Below are positions 1 through 10,636 of a stretch of 14,617 nt of DNA, one piece after another. Origin of the DNA: a virus. The first letter of the stretch is position 1. Every line of letters begins with the position of its first letter. Both the position numbers and the translations under genes were made by a program. The notes under the pieces are model-generated. The model was not told where the DNA came from and did no database searches. It saw nothing but the letters and a program-made list of their open reading frames with translations. The DNA is taken from UHGV virus genome UHGV-0060032. One strand, written 5' to 3'.

Positions 1-49
1 TTAATCACATATCGTGAATAATTAATTCATCTAACCACTGGAGGTTGAT

Positions 50-265
50 ATGAACAACATTGCAGAGCAGCGAAAAAAAATTGGGATTTCGCAAGCCGCT
101 CTGGCTTCTGCCATAGGCTGGGGGCAGTCGCGAATTGCCAATTATGAGCTTGATATCCGCACCCCTGGTCTGCCGGAAAGTCGCCTTATTGTCGAGGGCC
201 TGAACCGTCTCGGTTGCAATTGCTCCCTTGATGACGTTTTCCCACCAACTACCAGCGCAGCCTAA
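50..265 (+). CDS. Cro-like HTH (XRE-family) transcriptional regulator
   Basis: 71-aa ORF with GGAGG RBS at 40-44; helix-turn-helix-like segment IGISQAALASAIGWGQSRIANYE; sits immediately upstream of nutR and cII, the position of cro in lambdoid phages. Confidence 0.65.
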   Translation: MNNIAEQRKKIGISQAALASAIGWGQSRIANYELDIRTPGLPESRLIVEGLNRLGCNCSLDDVFPPTTSAA

Positions 266-273
266 GTAACACC

Positions 274-306
274 CGCTCTTATCACATCTAAGCCCTGAAA
301 AAGGGC
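274..306 (+). promoter_or_regulatory. nutR-like N-utilisation site: boxA CGCTCTTA (274-281) and boxB hairpin GCCCTGAAAAAGGGC (292-306)
   Basis: boxA matches the lambda boxA consensus and boxB matches lambda nutR boxB as I recall it; GCCCT/AGGGC is a perfect 5-bp inverted repeat with an A-rich loop, located between cro and cII. Confidence 0.75.
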
Positions 307-388
307 GATTCAAAACAACAAGTCTTAAAGGCTATGCGTGTCTGCACATTGGCCTATTTAACTATTTAACACTCTAGGAATTTAACAA

Positions 389-688
389 ATGGAAAACTCA
401 ATTAACCGCAACAAGGTCAATGCCCGTCGCATTGAGTCCTGGTTGCTTAACCGTATCGCTATGAAAGGTGGCAACAACGTAGCTAAAGAGATCGGCGTTG
501 ATAAGGCACAGATAACCCGCTGGAAAGAAACGTGGCTGCCGAAGATGGCAATGCTGCTTGCTGTTCTTGAATGGGGCGTCGTTGACGACGATATGGCTCG
601 ATTGGCACGACAAGTTGCTTCGATTCTCACCAATAAAAAACGCCCGGCGGCAACCGAGCGTTCTGAACAAATCCAGATGGAATTCTGA
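389..688 (+). CDS. cII: CII-like transcriptional activator
   Basis: 99-aa product; the stretch RIESWLLNRIAMKG...LLAVLEWGVVDDDMARLARQVASILTNKKRPAATERSEQIQMEF is near-identical to lambda CII as I recall it; position after cro/nutR. Confidence 0.85.
   Translation: MENSINRNKVNARRIESWLLNRIAMKGGNNVAKEIGVDKAQITRWKETWLPKMAMLLAVLEWGVVDDDMARLARQVASILTNKKRPAATERSEQIQMEF
398..411 (-). promoter_or_regulatory. PRE-like CII-binding -35 element (TTGC-N6-TTGA on minus strand)
   Basis: Reverse complement of 398-411 is TTGCGGTTAATTGA. In lambda the CII site TTGCN6TTGC of PRE lies antisense inside the first codons of cII, as it does here. Confidence 0.4.
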
Positions 689-720
689 GGTAATTACTGG
701 ATCAATCCACAGGAGTCATT

Positions 721-1590
721 ATGACAAATACAGCAAAAATACTCAACTTCGGCAGAGGTAACTTTGCCGAACAGGAGCTAAGAGTGGCTGATATCGATGA
801 TGGTTACACCAGATTCGCTAACGAGCTGCTGGAAGCTATCGCAAGTGCCGATTTAACCGCTCGCCAGTTGAAAGTTATGCTGGCCTACGTCCGGAAAACA
901 TATGGATTCAATAAGAAAACAGATCGAATAGCCGATGAGCAAATTGCTCAGTTAACAGGACTATCAAGGCAGAATGTTAACAAGGCTAAAAAAGAACTGA
1001 TTTCAATGAATTGCCTGTTTATGGATGGAAATCAAATCGGTGTAAACAGGGAGGTATCTGCGTGGCAATTCAGCAAGTGTCTCCAAGTTAGCAACTTTGT
1101 CTCGAAGTTAGAGACAAAAAATGTCTCCAAATTAGAGACACTCAATGTCTCGAAGTTAGAGACACTCAATGTCTCGAAGTTAGAGACACACAAAAGACAT
1201 TCTTTAAAGACAAAAGAAAATATTAATAAACCCCCTATATCCCCCAAAAAAATTTCTCAGAAGTTCGACCCGCTAGAAACAGAGTTGCCTGATTGGTTAT
1301 CGGCAGAAACATGGTTGTCGTGGGTTACCTATCGCAAGGAGATAGGTAAGTCGATCAAGTCTAAGCAAAGCGTCACTCAGGCTATCAACGTTCTAAGCAG
1401 AAGTCTGGAGAAGGGATATACACCTGAAGAAATTATAAACCAGAGCATCGCCAGTGGTTGGCAGGGGATTTTTGAACCCAAGACTCCAAAGGGGAAATCT
1501 CAACCGAGGCCGCAGCAGCGAGCTATGCAGGAAAACTTTGCCGCCAAAGATTACGGGCAAACTGAAATGCCTTCATGGGCGCAGGAGTGA
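721..1590 (+). CDS. Replication initiator, lambda O-like (iteron-binding N-terminal domain)
   Basis: N-terminus MTNTAKILNFGRGNFAEQE...DDGY...LKVMLAYVRKTYGFNK closely resembles lambda O N-terminal domain; the gene contains the iteron array; RBS AGGAG upstream. Confidence 0.8.
   Translation: MTNTAKILNFGRGNFAEQELRVADIDDGYTRFANELLEAIASADLTARQLKVMLAYVRKTYGFNKKTDRIADEQIAQLTGLSRQNVNKAKKELISMNCLFMDGNQIGVNREVSAWQFSKCLQVSNFVSKLETKNVSKLETLNVSKLETLNVSKLETHKRHSLKTKENINKPPISPKKISQKFDPLETELPDWLSAETWLSWVTYRKEIGKSIKSKQSVTQAINVLSRSLEKGYTPEEIINQSIASGWQGIFEPKTPKGKSQPRPQQRAMQENFAAKDYGQTEMPSWAQE
1078..1260 (+). repeat. Origin of replication: iteron array plus AT-rich tract inside the O-like gene
   Basis: Four copies of the palindromic 19-mer TGTCTC-N7-GAGACA at 1098, 1122, 1146 and 1170 (exact 24-bp spacing), a degenerate copy at 1078, then an A/T-rich stretch 1189-1260. 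This mirrors ori-lambda organisation. Confidence 0.8.
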
Positions 1591-1592
1591 AT

Positions 1593-2486
1593 ATGAATAC
1601 GACAAATGGTTACAATCTGGCACTGCAAAGGCAACTTGTAGACTCAAAAATCAATGACATTTCTGATCTGAAACAGAAACTTGAGTTTAGCAAAATTGGA
1701 TCAGTATCAGATGGAATGTCAGTTACCAGCACAGTGGAAGAGTGCGAGAAACACGGTAAATATACTTCCTATGAGAAATATCTGACCATCTCAGGAAAAA
1801 GAATTACTTCAAGTAAATCTGAGTGCCCACAGTGCCTTGAGGAGAAAATTCGTAAGAAAGAGATTGAACGTGAGCAGGCAGAACAAAGAGCAAGACAATC
1901 AAAAATTGAATATTTGTTGAATTCTCTCAATATTCCAGAGAGGTTCAAAAATTGCACTCTTCAGAATTATGAGCCTGTTAACGATGATGCAAAGCGAGTT
2001 CTTAAGGTATGCCAGGCATATGCCAGTAAGTGGCCTGAACGCCTTCAAAAAGGTGGCGGACTGGTCATGTGTGGTAAGCCTGGAACTGGAAAGAACCACC
2101 TTGCACTGGCTATCGCTAGGCACGCCATTATCGAGCATCAAAGCTCTGTGATATTTACCACTGCGTTGAAAATTGCCAGAGAGTACAAATCAACATGGTC
2201 TAAGGCCGCAACCAGAACTGAAGAAGAAGTCATTAGGCAATTTACGCATCCTGACTTGTTAATAATCGATGAGGTTGGCGTGCAGTTCGGCAGTGATGCT
2301 GAAAAGCTAATCATGTTCGAAATTATCAACACCAGATATGAATACATGAAGCCAACAATCCTGATTAGTAATCAGAGCAAAGATGAACTTTCGGCATTCA
2401 TTGGTGAGCGTGTTATTGACAGGATGAATGATGGCGGAGGGTGCACTCTTGCGTTTACATGGGATAGTTACAGGAGCAGATCGTGA
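1593..2486 (+). CDS. DnaC/IstB-like AAA+ helicase loader with N-terminal Cys-containing extension
   Basis: Walker A GKPGTGKNHLA and Walker B LLIIDEVG; CEKHG...CPQC motif near N-terminus; start at 1593 chosen for AGGAG RBS; occupies the lambda P position after O. Confidence 0.75.
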   Translation: MNTTNGYNLALQRQLVDSKINDISDLKQKLEFSKIGSVSDGMSVTSTVEECEKHGKYTSYEKYLTISGKRITSSKSECPQCLEEKIRKKEIEREQAEQRARQSKIEYLLNSLNIPERFKNCTLQNYEPVNDDAKRVLKVCQAYASKWPERLQKGGGLVMCGKPGTGKNHLALAIARHAIIEHQSSVIFTTALKIAREYKSTWSKAATRTEEEVIRQFTHPDLLIIDEVGVQFGSDAEKLIMFEIINTRYEYMKPTILISNQSKDELSAFIGERVIDRMNDGGGCTLAFTWDSYRSRS

Positions 2487-2773
2487 CTGGAAAAGAAATC
2501 ATCCTGGAATATCTGAAAACTCATGAACAATTCTCCCCACATGAATTAGCACTGATCACCGGAATACCAAATAACAGAATCGCTCAAGCAGCAAGGCATA
2601 TGGTGAAACAAGGACATTTGAGTGTTGTTGAGCGTAAGTGGAAGACGGTTATTTATGCAAAACGCAAAGTGAAGAAGGAGCCAATTAAAAGAAATCCAGA
2701 TGGTACGGGGTGGGGATGTGCAAATCCAATGACGGCGTTTATTAATAGGGCGCTTATGGAGGTAAGGCAATGA
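2483..2773 (+). CDS. Small hypothetical protein, possibly winged-helix DNA-binding
   Basis: 96-aa ORF with a GTG start overlapping the stop of the loader gene (translational coupling); basic C-terminus; no family recognised. Confidence 0.4.
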   Translation: MTGKEIILEYLKTHEQFSPHELALITGIPNNRIAQAARHMVKQGHLSVVERKWKTVIYAKRKVKKEPIKRNPDGTGWGCANPMTAFINRALMEVRQ

Positions 2774-2798
2774 CCATCTACATCACTGAGCTAATAAC

Positions 2799-2830
2799 AG
2801 GCCTGCTGGTAATCGCAGGCCTTTTTATTT
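2799..2830 (+). terminator. Rho-independent terminator-like hairpin
   Basis: AGGCCTGC (2799-2806), 8-nt loop, GCAGGCCT (2815-2822), followed by TTTTATTT. Confidence 0.65.
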
Positions 2831-2859
2831 GGGGGAGAGGGAATTGGAGGCTTTAAGAA

Positions 2860-3075
2860 ATGAGTACGATAGCTGAGCTTGTCAGGGCTAATTTTCGTGA
2901 AGAGTTGGTGCGTTGGTATCGGTATCGTTCATCGTCCAGTTTGCCGATTGATGAGTTGTATGAGCATTCACCTGCTGCACGACGCTATCCGCGTGACCGT
3001 GTTCTTCGACGGTTGTCCAAACTCAACAATGAGTTTCAGCGCAACAGAATTATTCGGAGTCTGGATTTAAAGTAA
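2860..3075 (+). CDS. Hypothetical protein (71 aa)
   Basis: ORF with GGAGG RBS 8-12 nt upstream of ATG; no recognisable family. Confidence 0.4.
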   Translation: MSTIAELVRANFREELVRWYRYRSSSSLPIDELYEHSPAARRYPRDRVLRRLSKLNNEFQRNRIIRSLDLK

Positions 3076-3085
3076 AGGAGTGAGC

Positions 3086-3292
3086 ATGACAAATCAGCAG
3101 CAAATAGAGTTCATCCTTGAGCAGATTCGAAAAATGCGAGAAAAGAACCAGCCAGACATGATGGAAATATGGAGACGCCAGCAGGAAGAATACCGCAAGC
3201 ATATTTTTGGTGAGAGAAAACAGGATGACTGGAGCCTATATGGCTATGGCACCAGGACAAATAAAAACGGATATAGCCTTTACACATATTGA
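3086..3292 (+). CDS. Hypothetical protein (68 aa)
   Basis: ATG at 3086 preceded by AAGGAG; charged, helical-looking product; no recognisable family. Confidence 0.4.
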   Translation: MTNQQQIEFILEQIRKMREKNQPDMMEIWRRQQEEYRKHIFGERKQDDWSLYGYGTRTNKNGYSLYTY

Positions 3293-3300
3293 GGAATTCC

Positions 3301-3711
3301 ATGAAACAGACAATTTTCCTCAGGAGTAAGCAACAACAGCAAACCGCAATCACCGCCATCCTCGCAACACCACTCGATAAAGACAAGCCAGTTACCATCC
3401 GCATTACTGACTACAAGCGCAACCTTGACCAGAACGCAAAATTTCACGCGATGCTGGCGGATATCGCAAGTCAGGTTCAATGGTGCGGCAAATGGTTAAA
3501 ACCAGAACAATGGAAGGTTTTGTTGATAAGCGGTCATGCAGTGGCAACAAAGCAGGAAGCTGATGTTTTGCCCGGCCTTGAAGGCGAATACGTCAACATT
3601 CGCGAAAGCAGCGCGCAGATGAGCGTGAAGCGTATGGCAAGTCTGATCGAGTACACAACAGCATGGGCTATTGGTCAGGGTGTCAGATTTACCGACAGGA
3701 GGTACGAATGA
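3301..3711 (+). CDS. ninB: NinB-like recombination protein
   Basis: The segment [24 protein letters not shown]...[12 protein letters not shown] resembles lambda NinB as I recall it; GAGGAA RBS; first gene of a nin-like cluster. Confidence 0.6.
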
Positions 3712-3884
3712 GACGACAGCGACGAAGTATCACCGACATAATCTGCGAAAACTGCAAATACCTTCCAACGAAACGCTCCAGAAATAAACGCAAGCCAATC
3801 CCAAAAGAATCTGACGTAAAAACCTTCAACTACACGGCTCACCTGTGGGATATCCGGTGGCTAAGGCATCGTGCGAGGAAATGA
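3708..3884 (+). CDS. ninE: NinE-like small protein
   Basis: 58-aa basic product [19 protein letters not shown]...; ATGA overlap with ninB stop; size and position match ninE. Name is from recall and synteny only. Confidence 0.5.
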
Positions 3885-3886
3885 CA

Positions 3887-4297
3887 ATGGATTATTCACA
3901 GTTAAGTGATTTTGAAATTAACAAGCGAGTATGTGAGGCTTTAGATATGGAGGAGCATTTCTTCATACCTGATGACGAAGCAGATTTCGATTCTGAGATC
4001 CCCACTGACGAAAGAGGTCCTATTTGGCAGACGCAAAAAAGGGATATTAATGGCTTCCGTTCTTCAAACGGAAATTGCTTCAATCCTTGCAATAATCCTG
4101 AATATGCGTGGCCAATTATCACTGAAAACAAAATCAGCATAATGTTTGATAGTACCGATACGAGATATGAAGGCGAATATCACGAGTGGTGTGATGCGAT
4201 TTCATCTTGTCAAAAGTTCGGAATTCAGTATCAGTCTAATCCACTCCGCGCCGCCATGATTGTCTTTCTCATGATGCAGGACGCCAATAATGCTTAG
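3887..4297 (+). CDS. Hypothetical protein in NinX-like position (136 aa, acidic, Cys-containing)
   Basis: ORF between ninE-like and ninF-like genes; start at 3887 chosen for GAGGAA spacing (3881 also possible). The NinX call is positional only. Confidence 0.4.
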   Translation: MDYSQLSDFEINKRVCEALDMEEHFFIPDDEADFDSEIPTDERGPIWQTQKRDINGFRSSNGNCFNPCNNPEYAWPIITENKISIMFDSTDTRYEGEYHEWCDAISSCQKFGIQYQSNPLRAAMIVFLMMQDANNA

Positions 4298-4466
4298 CCC
4301 ATCCCAATCCCTTCAATACCAGAAAGAAAGCGTCGAGCGGGCTTTAACGTGCGCTAACTGCGGTCAGAAGCTGCATGTGCTGGAAGTTCACGTGTGCTCC
4401 GATTGCTGCGCAGAGCTGATGAGCGATCCGAATAGCTCAATGTACGAGGAAGAAGACGATGAATGA
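4290..4466 (+). CDS. ninF: NinF-like small Cys-rich protein
   Basis: 58-aa ORF absent from the supplied track (under 60 aa); MLSPSQSLQYQKESVERALTCANCGQKLHVLEVHVCSDCCAELMSDPNSSMYEEEDDE; CxxC...CxxCC pattern; overlaps both neighbours. Confidence 0.5.
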   Translation: MLSPSQSLQYQKESVERALTCANCGQKLHVLEVHVCSDCCAELMSDPNSSMYEEEDDE

Positions 4467-5181
4467 GTTAATAAATGGCAATGCCATCAAAATGACAAGC
4501 ATTGAAATCGCTGAGTTGGTGGGAAGTCGTCATGACAAGGTGAAACAATCTATTGAACGACTGGCGGCTCGAGGTGTGATCCGAAATCCCCCAATGGTGG
4601 TTTTCGAAAAAATCAATAACTTAGGATTACTTCGTGGCGTAGAGGCTTACGTTTTTGAGGGCGAACAAGGTAAGCGAGACAGCATTATTGTCGTCGCTCA
4701 GTTGTCGCCGGAATTCACCGCTCGTCTTGTTGACCGTTGGCGAGAGCTTGAAGAAGCTGCGGTTAATATCCCCAAAACGCTACCAGAAGCGTTGCGCCTT
4801 GCTGCTGATCTTGCTGAGCAGAAAATGCAACTGGAAAACCAGCTCGCAATTGCCGCACCTAAAGTTGAGTTTGCCGATCGCGTTGGCGAGGCCAGCGGAA
4901 TTTTGATTGGAAACTTTGCAAAGGTTGTTGGTATTGGTCCAAACAAACTGTTTGCGTGGATGCGCGATCACAAAATCCTTATTGCTTCAGGTTCCCGGCG
5001 CAATGTGCCAATGCAGGAATATATGGAGCGCGGCTATTTCACAGTGAAAGAAACAGCGGTCAACACAAATCACGGAATACAGATATCGTTCACCACAAAA
5101 ATCACCGGGCGTGGTCAACAGTGGCTGACCAGAAAGCTGCTCGATAACGGAATGCTGAAAGTAACAGGGGAGGCTGCTTAA
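4459..5181 (+). CDS. Phage antirepressor-like protein (Rha/AntA-like N-terminal region, KilA-C/ANT-like C-terminal region)
   Basis: 240 aa; N-terminal SIEIAELVGSRHDKVKQSIERL resembles Rha/Ant N-domains; C-terminal half (APKVEFADRVGE...YFTVKET...) resembles KilA-C domains. Assigned by recall of family motifs. Confidence 0.6.
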   Translation: MNELINGNAIKMTSIEIAELVGSRHDKVKQSIERLAARGVIRNPPMVVFEKINNLGLLRGVEAYVFEGEQGKRDSIIVVAQLSPEFTARLVDRWRELEEAAVNIPKTLPEALRLAADLAEQKMQLENQLAIAAPKVEFADRVGEASGILIGNFAKVVGIGPNKLFAWMRDHKILIASGSRRNVPMQEYMERGYFTVKETAVNTNHGIQISFTTKITGRGQQWLTRKLLDNGMLKVTGEAA

Positions 5182-5471
5182 TGGCCAATCTACGCAAAGA
5201 AGCACGCGGCAGAGAATGTCAGGTACGTATTTACGGCGTATGCAATGGCAATCCTGAAACTACAGTTCTGGCACATTACCGGATGGCTGGAATTTGCGGA
5301 ACGGGAATGAAACCTGACGACCTGATCGGCGCATGGGCTTGTAGCGACTGCCACGCGGAGATCGACCGACGCACCCATAACCTCGACAACAAAGACGCCA
5401 GACTTTACCACCTCGAAGGCGTGATCAGGACGCAGGCGATACTGCTGAAGGAGGGGAAGATTAAACCATGA
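5181..5471 (+). CDS. YbcO-like DUF1364 protein (putative nuclease)
   Basis: 96 aa; MANLRKEARGRECQVRIYGVCNGNPETTVLAHYR...CSDCHAEIDRR resembles E. coli prophage YbcO; sits directly upstream of rusA as in DLP12-type prophages. Confidence 0.6.
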   Translation: MANLRKEARGRECQVRIYGVCNGNPETTVLAHYRMAGICGTGMKPDDLIGAWACSDCHAEIDRRTHNLDNKDARLYHLEGVIRTQAILLKEGKIKP

Positions 5472-5830
5472 ACGAATATCAGTTTGTGCTTCCATACCCG
5501 CCGTCGCTGAATACCTACTGGAGAAGACGGGGAAGCCAATACTACATCAGCGATAAAGGCCAGAAATACCGAAAAGACGTTCAGCAAATCATTCGCCAAC
5601 TCAAGTTAGACATTTTCACCAAATCACGACTCCGTATCAAAGTCATCGCAGACGTTCCAGATTCCCGCCGCCGCGACCTCGACAACATCCTGAAAGGTTT
5701 ACTCGACTCCCTTATCCACGCCGGATTTGCGGAAGACGACGAGCAATTCGATGACATTCGCGTAATTCGTGGTGTGAAAGTACCAGGCGGACGGCTTGGA
5801 ATAAAAATCACCGAACTGGAGAACGCATGA
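5468..5830 (+). CDS. rusA: Holliday junction resolvase RusA
   Basis: 120 aa; LPYPPSLNTYWRRRG...RRRDLDNILKGLLDSL...GGRLGIKITEL matches the RusA family including the acidic catalytic RRDLDN motif. Confidence 0.8.
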   Translation: MNEYQFVLPYPPSLNTYWRRRGSQYYISDKGQKYRKDVQQIIRQLKLDIFTKSRLRIKVIADVPDSRRRDLDNILKGLLDSLIHAGFAEDDEQFDDIRVIRGVKVPGGRLGIKITELENA

Positions 5831-6015
5831 ACGCCACAATTCAAACGATACCAGAGCTTCTTATCCAGACACGAGGCAATCAGACCGAAGTGGCGAGGAT
5901 GCTTTCCTGCGCAAGAGGAACAGTGCTCAAGTACAACCGAGACAGCAAAGGCGAGCGTCACGTAATAGTTAACGGCGTCCTGATGGTCAAACAAGGCAAG
6001 AGGGGAAGACGATGA
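5827..6015 (+). CDS. ninH: NinH-like small DNA-binding protein
   Basis: 62 aa; TIPELLIQTRGNQTEVARMLSCARGTVLKY resembles lambda NinH (Fis-like HTH) as I recall it; directly upstream of Q. Confidence 0.5.
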   Translation: MNATIQTIPELLIQTRGNQTEVARMLSCARGTVLKYNRDSKGERHVIVNGVLMVKQGKRGRR

Positions 6016-6530
6016 GCATAAGAGAACTAAACCTCACCAAAGAGCAGCACGAGTGGCTGAATGGCTGGCTTGAACTGTGGGGCGCATGGGTTTATTCAGG
6101 TCGTCTGGAAAAGCGCATGAGCAGCGTAATAGCGAAGTTCATGGAGAGCGTAGAGCCGGGAAGAATTATGACAAGGCCAATGTGTAATGATGATGATGGA
6201 ATGTTGATTTCTCAGGTCGTTGATTCCGTCATGTACATTGACAAGAAAGCCTTTGGCATCCTCCTCAGCTACTACGCTCATGGTTCATCTAAGCGAGCAA
6301 TTGCATCCTACTATCACGCGACTGCAAAGCCACGCAAGATGTGTGGACGCGGTGGCGAGGGATGGAGAAAACCTTCACTGGCAACCTGTAGAAACGAAAT
6401 TGACGATATCCTGAAAGCGTCATTATTTGTTTTGTACCAACCAATGCAAAATGCTTTCAAAATGCGTAAACGTGTTGAGAAAGTTAAGCATGTTGCTGTT
6501 AAAAACCTTGACATGCAATTAGCCATTTAG
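6012..6530 (+). CDS. Late-gene antiterminator Q (P22 gp23 / DLP12 QuuD-like family)
   Basis: 172 aa; WLELWGAWVYSG...RPMCNDDDGMLI resembles the Q-antiterminator family; a late-promoter-like element overlaps its 3' end. Confidence 0.65.
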   Translation: MSIRELNLTKEQHEWLNGWLELWGAWVYSGRLEKRMSSVIAKFMESVEPGRIMTRPMCNDDDGMLISQVVDSVMYIDKKAFGILLSYYAHGSSKRAIASYYHATAKPRKMCGRGGEGWRKPSLATCRNEIDDILKASLFVLYQPMQNAFKMRKRVEKVKHVAVKNLDMQLAI

Positions 6531-6537
6531 CCATAAT
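6508..6537 (+). promoter_or_regulatory. pR'-like late promoter
   Basis: -35 TTGACA (6508-6513), 18-bp spacer, -10 CATAAT (6532-6537), overlapping the end of the Q gene. Confidence 0.6.
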
Positions 6538-6593
6538 TAGAGGGTAAGCTGCCGTTAGTGACTCTTAAGTTGCAACGGTGGCTTTTTTTATTT

Positions 6594-6668
6594 GGGTCAG
6601 TCGTATAAAGGTCATTACGGAAGGCTGTTAACCTTCTTATCGTGGTTCGAGTCCACGCTGTCCCGCCA
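6594..6668 (+). tRNA. tRNA-Asn (anticodon GUU), phage-encoded
   Basis: Hand-folded cloverleaf, 75 nt: acceptor GGGTCAG/CTGTCCC (one U-U mismatch), U8, anticodon stem GAAGG/CCTTC with loop CUGUUAA, T-arm CGTGG-TTCGAGT-CCACG, discriminator G and encoded CCA. Confidence 0.6.
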
Positions 6669-6673
6669 AACAT

Positions 6674-6749
6674 GCTGGTTTAGCTCCAATGGTAGAGCGG
6701 TCGCCTTGTAAGTGAATAGGTAGCGGTTCAAATCCGTTAACCGGCACCA
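6674..6749 (+). tRNA. tRNA-Thr (anticodon UGU), phage-encoded
   Basis: Hand-folded cloverleaf, 76 nt: acceptor GCTGGTT/AACCGGC, D-arm GCTC-CAATGGTA-GAGC, anticodon loop CUUGUAA (stem has one G-A mismatch), T-arm AGCGG-TTCAAAT-CCGTT, discriminator A and CCA. Confidence 0.55.
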
Positions 6750-6805
6750 AAAACCCAGCCAGGGTATCTTCAGCCGCAGAGCTGACATTGCCACACCCTA
6801 ACATT

Positions 6806-6830
6806 CCCGCCTTGAGCGGGTTTTTTATTT
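6806..6830 (+). terminator. Rho-independent terminator (tR'-like), after the tRNAs and before the lysis genes
   Basis: CCCGC (6806-6810), loop CTTGA, GCGGG (6816-6820), then TTTTTTATTT. Confidence 0.75.
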
Positions 6831-6938
6831 CAGGCTCACGGGAATCAATCACTACGTGCTTTGTTGAAAATCCAGCCAGTGAAGCCTGATCCTTTTCATA
6901 CACACACAGCGCCATCCGAAAAATCGGAGGTGAGGCCT

Positions 6939-7262
6939 ATGAAAATGCCATACAAACAAGATTTCATCGCTGCGCTACTTGCCGCCAAGGAGCAGGGTAT
7001 TGGTGCAATGCTGGCTTTTATCATGGCGTATCTGCGTGGTCGCTATAACGGCGGCGCGGTAACAAAAACGCTAATTGATGCGCTGATGTGCGCGATGATT
7101 GCCTGGTTCGTTCGTGACCTTCTGGACTTTATCGGCCTGAGCAGCAACCTCGCCTACATAGCCAGCGTCTTTATTGGATACATCGGCACCGATTCGATCG
7201 GCAATCTTATTAAAAAACTTGCAGCAAAAAAGGCGGGAGTTGACGATGCAAACCAGTCCTGA
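6939..7262 (+). CDS. Class I holin, lambda S-like, with dual-start motif
   Basis: 107 aa from ATG 6939; begins [27 protein letters not shown]..., near-identical in pattern to lambda S including the Met-Lys-Met dual start (second ATG at 6945). Confidence 0.85.
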
Positions 7263-7695
7263 CGGAATTGCTCTGATAAAAAAATTTGAAGGTTGTCGGC
7301 TGACTGCTTACCCCGACCCCGGAACGGGAGATGCGCCGTGGACCATCGGCTATGGCTGGACCCATCCGGTTGACGGAAAGCCAGTAAAGCGCGGTATGAC
7401 TATCGACCAGCAAACCGCTGACAGGCTTCTGAAAACAGGGCTTGTTGGTTATGAGAATGACGTGCTGAAAGTTGTCAGGGTGAAGCTGACACAAGGCCAG
7501 TTCGACGCACTGGTGTCGTTCGCTTACAACGTTGGGTCGCGTGCTCTTTCCACATCTACACTGCTGAAAAAGCTGAATGCTGGCGATATAAAAGGCGCGG
7601 CAGATGAATTTCTGCGCTGGAATAAATCAGGCGGAAAGGTGATGCCGGGGCTCACGAATCGCCGCAAGGCAGAGCGAGCTCTGTTCCTGTCATGA
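7246..7695 (+). CDS. Endolysin, lysozyme (glycoside hydrolase family 24, P22 gp19-like)
   Basis: 149 aa from ATG 7246; [33 protein letters not shown] and C-terminal [11 protein letters not shown] typical of T4/P22-type lysozymes; overlaps holin end. Confidence 0.85.
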
Positions 7696-8159
7696 TTAGC
7701 GCACTGGTTAAGCGTTACTGGCTGCAGTTGCTGGTGCTGGCGTTAATCGGCGCACTGGCTTTCTTCGTGAACCACTACCGCGACAACGCCATCACTTACA
7801 GAGACCAGCGCGATAAGGCCACTGAGAAACTCCTCCTGGCGACCGCCACCATTAAAGACATGCAGACCCGCCAGCGTGATGTCGCTGCACTGGATGCCAA
7901 ATACACCGGAGAACTGGCTGATGCGAAAGAAACCATTGAGCGTCTGCATAGCGATGTCATTGCTGGCCGTAAGCGGCTGCAAGTCGCCGCCACCTGTGCA
8001 AAGTCAACGACCGGAGCCAGCGGCATGGGCGATGGAGAAAGCCCAAGACTTACAGCAGATGCTGAACTCAATTATTACCGTCTCCGAAGTGGAATCGACA
8101 AGATAACCGCGCAGGTTAACTACCTGCAGGAGTACATCAGGACGCAATGCCTGAAATAA
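7692..8159 (+). CDS. Rz-like i-spanin
   Basis: 155 aa; N-terminal transmembrane segment [17 protein letters not shown] then charged coiled-coil-like region; ATGA overlap with lysozyme stop; contains Rz1 in the +1 frame. Confidence 0.8.
7921..8106 (+). CDS. Rz1-like o-spanin (outer-membrane lipoprotein) embedded within Rz
   Basis: 61 aa from ATG 7921: [20 protein letters not shown] (signal peptide plus lipobox Cys) followed by proline-rich [13 protein letters not shown]; fully nested in Rz. Confidence 0.75.
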
Positions 8160-8192
8160 TTTTTTTTGCAAATCACAAAGTCCATTTAATGA

Positions 8193-8216
8193 GCCTCGCG
8201 ATGCGGGGCTTTTTTA
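8193..8216 (+). terminator. Rho-independent terminator-like hairpin after the lysis cassette
   Basis: GCCTCGC (8193-8199), loop GAT, GCGGGGC (8203-8209, one G-U pair), followed by TTTTTT. Confidence 0.6.
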
Positions 8217-8359
8217 CATCTGAATTTCACAGCGCATCTCACGCGCATATTACCACTCAGAACCTTTCAGGATGACCCTTGAGGATACCGGCTGGCTGTC
8301 GGAGCATCTGAGGGCCGGATTTCCTGTGAGACAAGGTTCATCACTAAAAGGTAAATCCG

Positions 8360-8911
8360 ATGAATGATATTTCTATCGAATATCTGAAAGAAGCACTGGA
8401 ATACGCACCAGATACTGGTGTTATCCGTTGGAAGCAGCGACCAAAAATTCATTTTAAGACCGAAAATTCTTGGCGGGCGACCAATGCTAATTTTGCTGGA
8501 AAAGTAGCAGGCGCACGTGATAGCGATGGATATTTGCGTATCGGGATATGCGGCCGGTTATATAGATCTCATCGTGTAGCCTGGGCGTTACATTACGGCT
8601 ACTGGCCTGATAATGAGATTGATCACATTTCAGGCGATAGGAGTGATAACCGCATAGACAACTTGCGATCAGTAACTTCGGCAGCCAATAGCAAAAATTT
8701 GCGCCTTTACTCCACAAATAAAACCGGTATCCCAGGAGTAGGTTGGTATAAAGCGCGGGGAAAGTGGAGAGCAAAGATAAACGTCTCTGGGAAGGTGAAG
8801 CATATTGGTTACTTCGATGATTTCCGTGAAGCGGTGAAAGCAAGAAAGGCTGCCGAGATGCAGTTGCAATATCACAAAAATCACGGAACCAGAGACAGGC
8901 TCACTTTCTAA
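8360..8911 (+). CDS. HNH endonuclease with C-terminal AP2-like DNA-binding region
   Basis: 183 aa; HNH core HRVAWALHYGYWPDNEIDHISGDRSDNRIDNLR; C-terminal GIPGVGWYKARGKWRAKINVSGKVKHIGYFDDFREA resembles AP2 domains of phage endonucleases. Confidence 0.75.
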   Translation: MNDISIEYLKEALEYAPDTGVIRWKQRPKIHFKTENSWRATNANFAGKVAGARDSDGYLRIGICGRLYRSHRVAWALHYGYWPDNEIDHISGDRSDNRIDNLRSVTSAANSKNLRLYSTNKTGIPGVGWYKARGKWRAKINVSGKVKHIGYFDDFREAVKARKAAEMQLQYHKNHGTRDRLTF

Positions 8912-8925
8912 AAGGTAAAGACGCT

Positions 8926-9450
8926 ATGAATAATCATTCAGTTATTCCATCCTTCGACTTCCGAGAAATGGTGCAAGCCAAAAACGGAGAGGTCGTTACC
9001 ACATCCAGAAAAATTGCCAAGTACTTCGGCAAGCGACACGGTGATGTTCTCAGGAAAATCGAGCAGGTTAAGGCTGATTGCTCGCGTGAGTTTAGCCAAC
9101 GCAATTTTGCGTCGGCTGATTATATCGATGAGCAGGGCAAGGTTCGCCCGATGTACAGCCTGACGAAAGATGGCTGGATCATGGTTGTGATGGGGTTCAC
9201 CGGGAAAGCTGCTGCGGCAATCAAGGAGAGCTATATCGCAGCATTCAACTGGATGGCAGAGCAGCTAAACCGGCGCATGGCGATGGGTGAAGAATTGCAG
9301 CATCGCTACGCCATCAAAGAAACGCGCTCAAAGCTGAAAGGCACGTTCGGAAGCCGTTTGATGAACGAGCGGAAGAAAGAGAAGCGCGTCCTGGAGCTCG
9401 AACATGAGCACATCATGCAGGTAACGCAGCCGGAATTACTTATTGGCTGA
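8926..9450 (+). CDS. Phage regulatory protein Rha family
   Basis: 174 aa; VVTTSRKIAKYFGKRHGDVLRKIEQV...MYSLTKDGWIMVVMGF matches the Rha-domain pattern as I recall it. Confidence 0.65.
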   Translation: MNNHSVIPSFDFREMVQAKNGEVVTTSRKIAKYFGKRHGDVLRKIEQVKADCSREFSQRNFASADYIDEQGKVRPMYSLTKDGWIMVVMGFTGKAAAAIKESYIAAFNWMAEQLNRRMAMGEELQHRYAIKETRSKLKGTFGSRLMNERKKEKRVLELEHEHIMQVTQPELLIG

Positions 9451-9510
9451 TCGCGGCATTACAGAAGCCCTTCATTGAGGGGCTTCGATAATGGAGCACT
9501 GGAATTATTC

Positions 9511-10131
9511 ATGAACAGACCACACCCACCAGCGCATTTTACGATGCCACCTGACCCGAAGCCGTACATCAGCATTATGCCCGCTAATGACGTTGGCGAG
9601 TGGCTGAATCAGCACATCCTGAGCGATGAGGGTGACCTCTACAACCATGACCACCAGCATTTGCTTGAAGCGGATCTGTGCTTTCTCTGGGCATCGAACG
9701 CTTTCGAGAAGAAAGGGCGTTCCGTGCTGGGGCAGGCGGAAGAAGTGGCAATGCGGGCCGGAGGCTGGCAGAAAGCGCGGATGGAGCAGCAGATGTATGA
9801 ATGGTTCGGCAGGGTGCCGCAGTTCATCATCACGCTGGCCGCCGATTACTGCTCGCAATGTTCCGATCTGGAATTCTGCGCGCTGATAGAGCACGAGCTT
9901 TATCACATCTGCCAAGCGACAGATGAATTTGGTGCGCCGAAGTTCACGCAGGAAGGGCAGCCAAAGCTGAAGCTGCGCGGCCATGACGTGGAAGAGTTTG
10001 TGGGCGTGGTTCGCCGTTACGGTGCGAGCCGGGACGTGCAGGAAATGATTGATGCGGCGAATCAGCCAGCGGAGGTTGCTCATCTCGATATTGCCAGAGC
10101 GTGCGGGACGTGCATGCTGCGACTGGCTTAA
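9511..10131 (+). CDS. Hypothetical HExxH-motif protein (putative zinc metallopeptidase-like)
   Basis: 206 aa from ATG 9511 (TTG 9475 or ATG 9544 also possible); HExxH motif in ALIEHELYHI preceded by CSQCSDLEFC; GC-rich codon usage like the packaging genes. Confidence 0.5.
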   Translation: MNRPHPPAHFTMPPDPKPYISIMPANDVGEWLNQHILSDEGDLYNHDHQHLLEADLCFLWASNAFEKKGRSVLGQAEEVAMRAGGWQKARMEQQMYEWFGRVPQFIITLAADYCSQCSDLEFCALIEHELYHICQATDEFGAPKFTQEGQPKLKLRGHDVEEFVGVVRRYGASRDVQEMIDAANQPAEVAHLDIARACGTCMLRLA

Positions 10132-10162
10132 ATACTGGACTGTATAAGACGAATGGTGATTT

Positions 10163-10636
10163 ATGGCTGCATTAAAACCTGATGTGAAAGCCTTCATCAT
10201 TCAGTCGCTTGCGTGCTATGACACGCCATCGCAGGTGGTCGAGGCTGTCCAAAAAGAATTCGGGATCAGGATCACCCGCCAGCAGGCTGAATCTCACGAC
10301 CCCACGAAGGCCAGCGGTAAGACGCTCGCCAAAAAGTGGATCGAGATGTTCCACGCGACGCGCGAACGGTTCCTGACCGAAACCAGCGACATTCCGATAG
10401 CGAACAAATCCTATCGCCTCCGCGTGCTTGACCGCATGGCAACCAAAACCGAGGGGATGAAAAACTTCTCCCTGACGGCGCAGCTTATCGAACAGGCCGC
10501 GAAAGAGGTTGGCGACGCTTACACCAATAAGCTGAAGGTTGAGAGCACTGGCAAGGATGGCGGCCCGATCAAGACCGAGACGACCAACCTCACCGCAGAT
10601 CAGGCCGCAGAGATTTACCGCAAGATGATGGGGTGA
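10163..10636 (+). CDS. Terminase small subunit (DUF2280-like)
   Basis: 157 aa; [35 protein letters not shown] resembles the DUF2280 putative small-terminase family as I recall it; directly upstream of and overlapping TerL. Confidence 0.6.

Follow-up and report, generated by a model that had tools for sequence, protein, structure and literature searches.

The closest described counterpart of the site analysed here is nutR of phage lambda, which reads CGCTCTTA-CACATTCCA-GCCCTGAAAAAGGGC (NC_001416 38249-38280) when its boxes are delimited as in PMC2724277 and PMC3177189. The annotation of NC_001416 places 'Nutr' at 38265-38281, rutA at 38249-38266 and rutB at 38282-38301. The eight-nucleotide boxA is recognised by NusB-NusE (PMC3177189), the lambda spacer is bound by NusA, for which residues 34-47 of lambda N are the binding segment (PMC2724277), and the binding of boxB by lambda N requires a GNRNA loop together with a closing U-A pair (PMC12027372). 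The AUU of the lambda spacers is critical for NusA binding in vitro; deletion of the first three spacer bases leaves antitermination unimpaired (PMC2724277), and therefore spacer length is tolerant. The leftward site of lambda, nutL (NC_001416 ~35518-35550, complementary strand), reads CGCTCTTA AAAATTAA GCCCTGAAGAAGGGC.

Other systems share parts of this organisation. Phage P22 (NC_002371) has the same order of boxA, spacer and 15-nt boxB, the latter being GCGCUGACAAAGCGC in nutL and CCGCCGACAACGCGG in nutR, both with GACAA loops. In phage 21 (lambda h434 imm21, OM418627) boxA is likewise followed by a hairpin, which in nutR is UCACC-UCUAACCG-GGUGA. The boxA of the E. coli rrn operons has the GCUCUU core bound by NusB-NusE (PMC2724277, PMC3177189), but it differs in its form (UGCUCUUUA, with an extra U) and in working without N or boxB.

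The window studied here is the whole stretch of 14,617 nt of the virus genome UHGV-0060032. We think that its positions 274-306 are the rightward nut site of a mosaic lambdoid phage, working like lambda nutR, a reading to which we give a probability of about 0.9. The site is a textbook lambda-type nut site, and the immunity, replication and packaging modules around it are from elsewhere. Its unusual points are only mild ones: a 10-nt spacer, a nutL that combines a P22-type stem with a lambda loop, a chimeric N, and a joint directly after boxB in one related contig. The coordinates are collected in Table 1.

Table 1. Features of the nutR locus, of the early-right operon and of the upstream side; L002 is the metagenome scaffold that overlaps the window.
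Feature	Coordinates	Strand	Basis and remarks
pR -10 hexamer AATAAT	window 17-22	+	promoter scan of L002
Operator-like half-palindrome ATCACATATCGTGAA	window ~4-18		judged by eye
cro-type gene, 71 aa, HTH_3	window 50-265	+	Pfam HTH_3, E = 2.5e-9; first gene of the pR transcript
nutR CGCTCTTA-TCACATCTAA-GCCCTGAAAAAGGGC	window 274-306	+	read from the sequence
nutR boxA CGCTCTTA	window 274-281	+	expected NusB-NusE (S10) site on the RNA; identical to lambda boxA
nutR spacer TCACATCTAA, 10 nt	window 282-291	+	counterpart is the NusA-binding segment in lambda (PMC2724277)
nutR boxB GCCCTGAAAAAGGGC	window 292-306	+	15/15 identical to lambda nutR boxB
boxC-like GT-rich stretch CTATGCGTGTCTGCA	window 332-346	+	aligns with lambda CTATGGTGTATGCA 3' of boxB; weak, resemblance only
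cII	window 389-688	+	Pfam Phage_CII, E = 1.9e-37; first gene downstream of nutR
O-type initiator with iterons	window 721-1590		
DnaC/IstB-like helicase loader, replacing lambda P	window 1575-2486		
tR2-type intrinsic terminator, AGGCCTGC-loop-GCAGGCCT then T-run	window about 2799-2832	+	terminator scan
Q-type late antiterminator	window 6012-6530	+	Pfam Phage_antitermQ, E = 1.6e-25; downstream of the nin genes
pL-like promoter	L002 6752-6723	-	promoter scan
nutL AGCTCTTA-AAAATCTG-GCGCTGAAAAAGCGC	L002 6684-6654	-	~35 nt downstream of the pL-like promoter
N, 108-aa ORF MDAQTRRRERRAEKQAQWKSAN...	L002 6059-6385	-	Pfam N36, 90.1 bits

The nutR site

A sequence-only reading of the window had described this nutR as identical to that of lambda. 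This is right for the two boxes, since boxA (CGCUCUUA) agrees in 8/8 and boxB (GCCCUGAAAAAGGGC) in 15/15 positions, but not for the 33-nt site as a whole, because the spacer differs in both length and sequence: it has ten nucleotides with AUC (UCACAUCUAA), whereas the one of lambda has nine with AUU (CACAUUCCA). The boxA has the form (C/U)GCUCUU(U)A on the transcribed strand and, in contrast with the rrn boxA, is followed by an N-specific boxB. The latter, GCCCU-GAAAA-AGGGC, has a 5-bp stem, a GAAAA pentaloop of the GNRNA kind and a closing U-A pair. RNA fold prediction gives (((((.....))))) at -7.9 kcal/mol with an ensemble frequency of 97%, and boxB is the sole stable structure predicted across its 65-nt surroundings.

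The same reading had proposed a comparison of boxB with those of lambda, P22 and phage 21. It matches lambda, and the other two differ: the loop is GAAAA in the window and GACAA in P22, and the boxB hairpins of phage 21 are unrelated. Neither the P22-type nor the phage 21-type features are found in the window boxB, which is of the lambda class only.

The position of the site is also that of lambda, as the layout pR-cro-nutR-cII is the same in both. nutR lies 9 nt past the cro stop and 83 nt ahead of the cII start, with boxA beginning about 245 nt from the pR start, and it stands downstream of pR and upstream of the tR2-type terminator, as an early-transcript nut site of lambda type does. The C-rich upstream flank is a further likeness: window 241-300 has 35-45% C and 10-12% G, a composition that resembles lambda rutA. 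Past boxB the sequence diverges from lambda, and this segment has 20% C compared with 30% C in lambda rutB. A stretch resembling boxC follows (Table 1); boxC has no proven function, even in lambda. Rfam searches of the window, both gathering and permissive, gave no family at the nut site, their sole matches being two tRNAs, so that the site falls outside the curated RNA models.

The upstream side: N, pL and nutL

A look-up of the exact Cro protein gave eight contigs. One of them, the metagenome scaffold L002, matches window 1-10265 at 100% identity (L002 8847 is window 1) and provides 8.8 kb of upstream sequence. Judging from this identical contig, the source of the window itself probably carries the same upstream features. 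In upstream order, L002 has pR, a divergent LexA/S24-type repressor, a Bro-N-like gene, a small ORF and then the pL-like promoter. In the promoter scan pR is strong (TTGACA-17-AATAAT, 11/12 match, L002 8840-8868), and its -35 TTGACA lies 2-7 nt ahead of the start of the window.

N and the left operon had been predicted to lie upstream of the window, beyond the repressor, and it is there that L002 has N, the pL-like promoter and nutL, on the opposite strand. The N ORF lies 268 nt beyond nutL. In window coordinates on the minus strand, N would extend from about -2787 to -2461 and the nutL boxB from about -2192 to -2178. The lack of an N homologue or of nutL in the flank, named beforehand as the outcome that would speak against an N-type antiterminator, was looked for in L002, and both elements are present. 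A cognate N with a matching arginine-rich motif (ARM) and a partner nutL, as expected from a lambda-type nut system, are at hand in a contig identical to window 1-10265.

The N protein of L002 is 90% identical to lambda N. Its ARM, residues 1-19 (MDAQTRRRERRAEKQAQWK), is identical to that of lambda, and so are residues 34-47, the stretch that binds NusA in lambda N. In the PDB it is matched best by the lambda N antitermination complexes 6gov, 5lm7 and 5ms0, and by 1qfq, the complex of the N peptide with boxB. The protein is chimeric: residues 1-84 are lambda-like, whereas the last 24 (SKPRSEMGVTCVGRQKMKLGSKPLI) are unlike those of lambda and identical in 23/24 positions to the C-terminus of phage 21 N. 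The ARM of phage 21 N differs from the one in L002, and that of P22 gp24 (GNAKTRRHERRRKLAIER) differs as well, which places P22 in a different specificity class. The N of L002 supports the proposal, made from the window alone, of a mosaic immunity region with lambda-type N specificity.

The same N subtype, with lambda-like residues 1-84 and a phage-21-like C-terminus, occurs in the cultured E. coli phages HK544, HK633, HK542, mEp213, CL707, Dewey and Louie, in which N is 97-99% identical to that of L002. At an identity of >=65-70%, the cro region of the window has no match in any of these phages but Louie, where the match covers 80 nt.

The nutL of L002 has flanks clearly homologous to those of lambda nutL, with an 8-nt A-rich spacer, as in lambda, and an equal distance from pL. 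It differs from lambda nutL in its boxA, which begins with A instead of C, and in its boxB, GCGCUGAAAAAGCGC with a GAAAA loop, compared with GCCCUGAAGAAGGGC and GAAGA in lambda, the third stem pair being flipped. The same pair is flipped relative to the nutR boxB, from C:G to G:C, with the GAAAA loop and the closing U-A pair unchanged. Thus, the expectation of finding N together with a nutL of the same boxB was borne out for the presence of both, but the boxB is not quite the same. The resulting stem, GCGCU/AGCGC, is that of P22 nutL.

All eight exact-Cro contigs examined have the same N type, nutL and nutR, and the N ORF is intact in 8/8. They differ in other respects. In L002 8586-8800 (minus strand) an unrelated segment of about 47 nt with stop codons takes the place of the helix-turn-helix part of the cI-type repressor, leaving a Peptidase_S24 ORF of 154 aa, whereas the repressor is intact in the other seven (212-215 aa). 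An assembly error, or a defective or virulent variant, could account for this copy. The contig L004 (10243-10272, plus strand) has the same Cro and nutR and switches right after boxB to lambda's own ATCAAATTAAACCAC, with a cII of 92 aa; this switch to lambda sequence past boxB places a recombination joint at or in boxB.

Conservation and variation among relatives

A broader sample was formed by the 80 IMG/VR contigs in which N is at least 97% identical to the N of L002. Their nutR boxB is GCCCUGAAAAAGGGC in 79 and GCCCUGGAAAAGGGC in the remaining one, and their nutL boxB is of lambda type, GCCCUGAAGAAGGGC with the GAAGA loop, with a G-U end pair in two. The first base of boxA varies among C, A, G and T. 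The nutR spacers are of 9 nt, the commonest being CACAUCCCA, and AUC is the most frequent form. The form of nutL boxB seen in L002, GCGCUGAAAAAGCGC, was found in 15 IMG/VR contigs, mostly together with a more divergent lambda-type N (MDAQARRRERRAEKQAEWK..., MNAQDRRRDRRAEKQAEWK...). In these contigs the nutR boxB is GCCCUGAAAAAGGGC, GCCCUGGAAAAGGGC or UCGCUGAAAAAGCGA, and the nutR spacers are often 10 nt long.

These data bear on the rule derived from lambda, by which a spacer has 8-9 nt with AUU, compared with 10 nt and AUC in the nutR of the window. As AUC is the majority form in the 80 related loci and 10-nt spacers recur, we think that this rule is probably too strict.

With lambda-type ARMs, the boxB stems stay paired through double changes (GCCCU/AGGGC, GCGCU/AGCGC and UCGCU/AGCGA), while the GNRNA loop and the U-A pair are constant. 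The covariation count, with 100% pairing, two double-change pairs and a score reached by 4/500 shuffles, is formally positive but only illustrative, because it comes from just six different sequences and the filter used to gather them demanded pairing. When this filter was dropped in a looser search, no unpaired boxB appeared at genuine nut positions.

Megablast of the first 493 nt of the window against 5,426 complete E. coli genomes gave no match; in the phage collection this segment had only weak matches (71-78%). The exact 33-nt nutR is absent from the set of species-representative genomes. A scan of the latter for Cro gave only relatives of 73-82%, the nearest for this Cro, in prophages of Pantoea and Providencia (L106-L110), with other boxB types. 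In Providencia (L110) the Cro relative is followed by a boxA and the hairpin GCGCUGAAAAAGCGC, and in Pantoea conspicua (L108) by a boxA and a hairpin with a GAAA tetraloop, UCGCU-GAAA-AGCGA. As the hairpins of L106-L110 differ, the same type of Cro has been paired with several nut types. The host of the phage is taken to be enterobacterial, by similarity to phages of E. coli, Citrobacter and Salmonella.

The early-right operon

The sequence-only reading contrasted an almost lambda-like cII with a Cro, a helicase loader and packaging genes that are not lambda-like, and the comparisons agree with it on each of these genes. Over its whole length the window cII shares 75% identity with lambda cII, and at the C-terminus 36/37 residues are identical. 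On the other hand, no alignment, and no detectable similarity, was obtained between the window Cro and lambda Cro; the repressor and the operators are also unrelated to those of lambda. The loader is of the DnaC/IstB-like type, and the packaging genes are 98.8% identical to those of Citrobacter phage Omnitron, with no lambda match.

The terminator at 2799 separates the replication genes from the nin region. An identical terminator in P22, at 34703-34728, is annotated as 'L2; similar to phage lambda'. In the window it is the clearest barrier for an N-modified polymerase on its way to Q. By analogy with lambda, the expression of Q is expected to depend on N readthrough from pR. The lysis genes follow downstream of Q.

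Proposed function and alternative explanations

In the mechanism that we propose, transcription from pR through cro would present boxA, the spacer and the boxB hairpin on the nascent RNA. The GAAAA loop of boxB would fold like a GNRA tetraloop with one base extruded, and the arginine-rich N-terminus of N, encoded some 2.5-2.8 kb upstream on the other strand, past the repressor, would bind this loop and the closing U-A pair. Host NusB-NusE would bind boxA, NusA would bind the spacer and N, and NusG would join. The complex would then stay on the RNA polymerase and make it resistant to the terminators downstream, with readthrough leading to the expression of O, the loader, the nin genes and Q. 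Both the binding of N to boxB and the antitermination at the window nutR are what we infer from the likeness to lambda. The sister site nutL would serve the N-encoding pL transcript in the same way.

The barriers to be passed in this way would certainly include the tR2-type intrinsic terminator at 2799, and possibly a Rho-dependent tR1 before cII. The rutA-like composition of window 241-300, rich in C and poor in G, makes a tR1 between nutR and cII plausible; such a tR1 is not established, since the segment after boxB is less C-rich than lambda rutB.

Other explanations of the site have to be weighed against this one. The nutR might be an inherited relic of a recent lambda-like acquisition, unused because the phage relies on another antiterminator or because the copy is defective. 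The high mosaicism of the region, the turn of L004 to lambda sequence directly after boxB, the disrupted repressor of L002 and a spacer of atypical length without AUU would all fit this view. However, every exact-Cro contig examined has a nutL and a cognate N with an identical ARM in an intact ORF, and boxB is invariant in 79/80 related loci, among which the first base of boxA and the spacer vary, a constancy that is the signature of selection on the boxes. Moreover, Q lies behind a strong terminator, and no other candidate for an early antiterminator was seen. We consider a relic very unlikely for these reasons. It is similarly hard to believe, and perhaps slightly harder, that the hairpin and its C-rich flank serve chiefly as a Rho-loading (rut) region or terminator, or as the exclusion target of a Nun-type protein of a competing prophage. 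The annotation of lambda rutA coincides with boxA and the spacer, rutB follows boxB, and window 241-300 has the C-rich, G-poor composition mentioned above. Besides, the Nun protein of HK022 binds lambda-type boxB, so the phage should be a Nun target. Nevertheless, in lambda such roles exist alongside the nut function instead of taking its place, and the cognate N is present. As an intrinsic terminator boxB was rejected: neither strand has a T-run after the hairpin, which was not called in the terminator scan either.

A chance resemblance can practically be dismissed. Nothing but the short length of the motif argues for it, whereas the pattern boxA-N(5-15)-boxB, with 23 specified bases, occurs once in the window and in 0/200 dinucleotide-preserving shuffles, at the correct operon position, with homology to lambda in the flanks and conservation in dozens of related contigs. 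The two nut sites of the phage do not simply copy the lambda pair, and there is also a joint reading to which we give little credence: that hybrid nut sites are functional intermediates, showing how recombination in or beside boxB, such as the joint in L004, reshuffles the modules of N/boxB specificity, or that a second nut-like sequence, within the endolysin gene, is functional. The endolysin part is the disfavoured half of it. This sequence, GCTCTTTCCACATCTACACTGCTGAAAAAGCTG at window 7543-7575 (plus strand; gene 7246-7695), gives the highest-scoring local match to nutR outside the site itself, with a score reached by 1/300 shuffles, and it has a GCTCTT core, CACATCTA in the spacer, the loop region CTGAAAAAG and 4/5 stem pairs. 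We rejected it as a third nut site because it encodes a conserved lysozyme peptide and because its nut-like bases are not kept in five homologous endolysin genes; its likeness to nutR is judged to be a coincidence of codon choice. A lambda-type nutR at 274-306 is the reading that we retain.

Significance

The biology involved is well known, and the locus adds a mosaic phage to the instances of the lambda N/nut system. Its value is in the first place for annotation, because the early-right layout is fixed as pR, cro, nutR, cII, O, DnaC-like loader, tR2-type terminator, nin and Q, and lambda-type N specificity can be predicted for the phage. From lambda biology, one would also infer dependence on host Nus factors and sensitivity to exclusion of the HK022 Nun type. 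In addition, the sites form a small natural data set that separates what is fixed in a lambda-type nut site, namely the GCUCUU core, the GNRNA loop, the closing U-A pair and the pairing of the stem, from what drifts, namely the first base of boxA, the spacer length (8-10 nt), the AUU/AUC position and the identity of the stem pairs.

Other features of the window

Several further elements were observed outside the nut region. An OOP-like antisense RNA unit at 637-746 (minus strand) overlaps the 3' end of cII and is near-identical to the lambda oop region; its promoter-like site at 746-718 shows an extended -10 TG, and its strong terminator lies at 664-637. Within the O gene there are four to five iterons with a period of 24 nt (TGTCTCGAAGTTAGAGACA...; 1075-1193, plus strand), which are expected to be the origin of replication inside the O-type initiator gene.

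Just past Q, a pR'-like promoter (TTGACA-18-CATAAT, 11/12, at 6508-6537 on the plus strand) is followed on the same strand by tRNA-Asn(GTT) at 6594-6668, tRNA-Thr(TGT) at 6674-6749 and a terminator at 6806-6820. This order of promoter, tRNA genes and terminator between 6508 and 6820 places the tRNA genes in the late leader, as also occurs in some Stx phages. Finally, according to the Pfam labels in the L002 gene table, an HNH_3 endonuclease ORF (8360-8911) and an ORF with a pRha domain (8926-9450), both on the plus strand, lie between the lysis genes and the small terminase.
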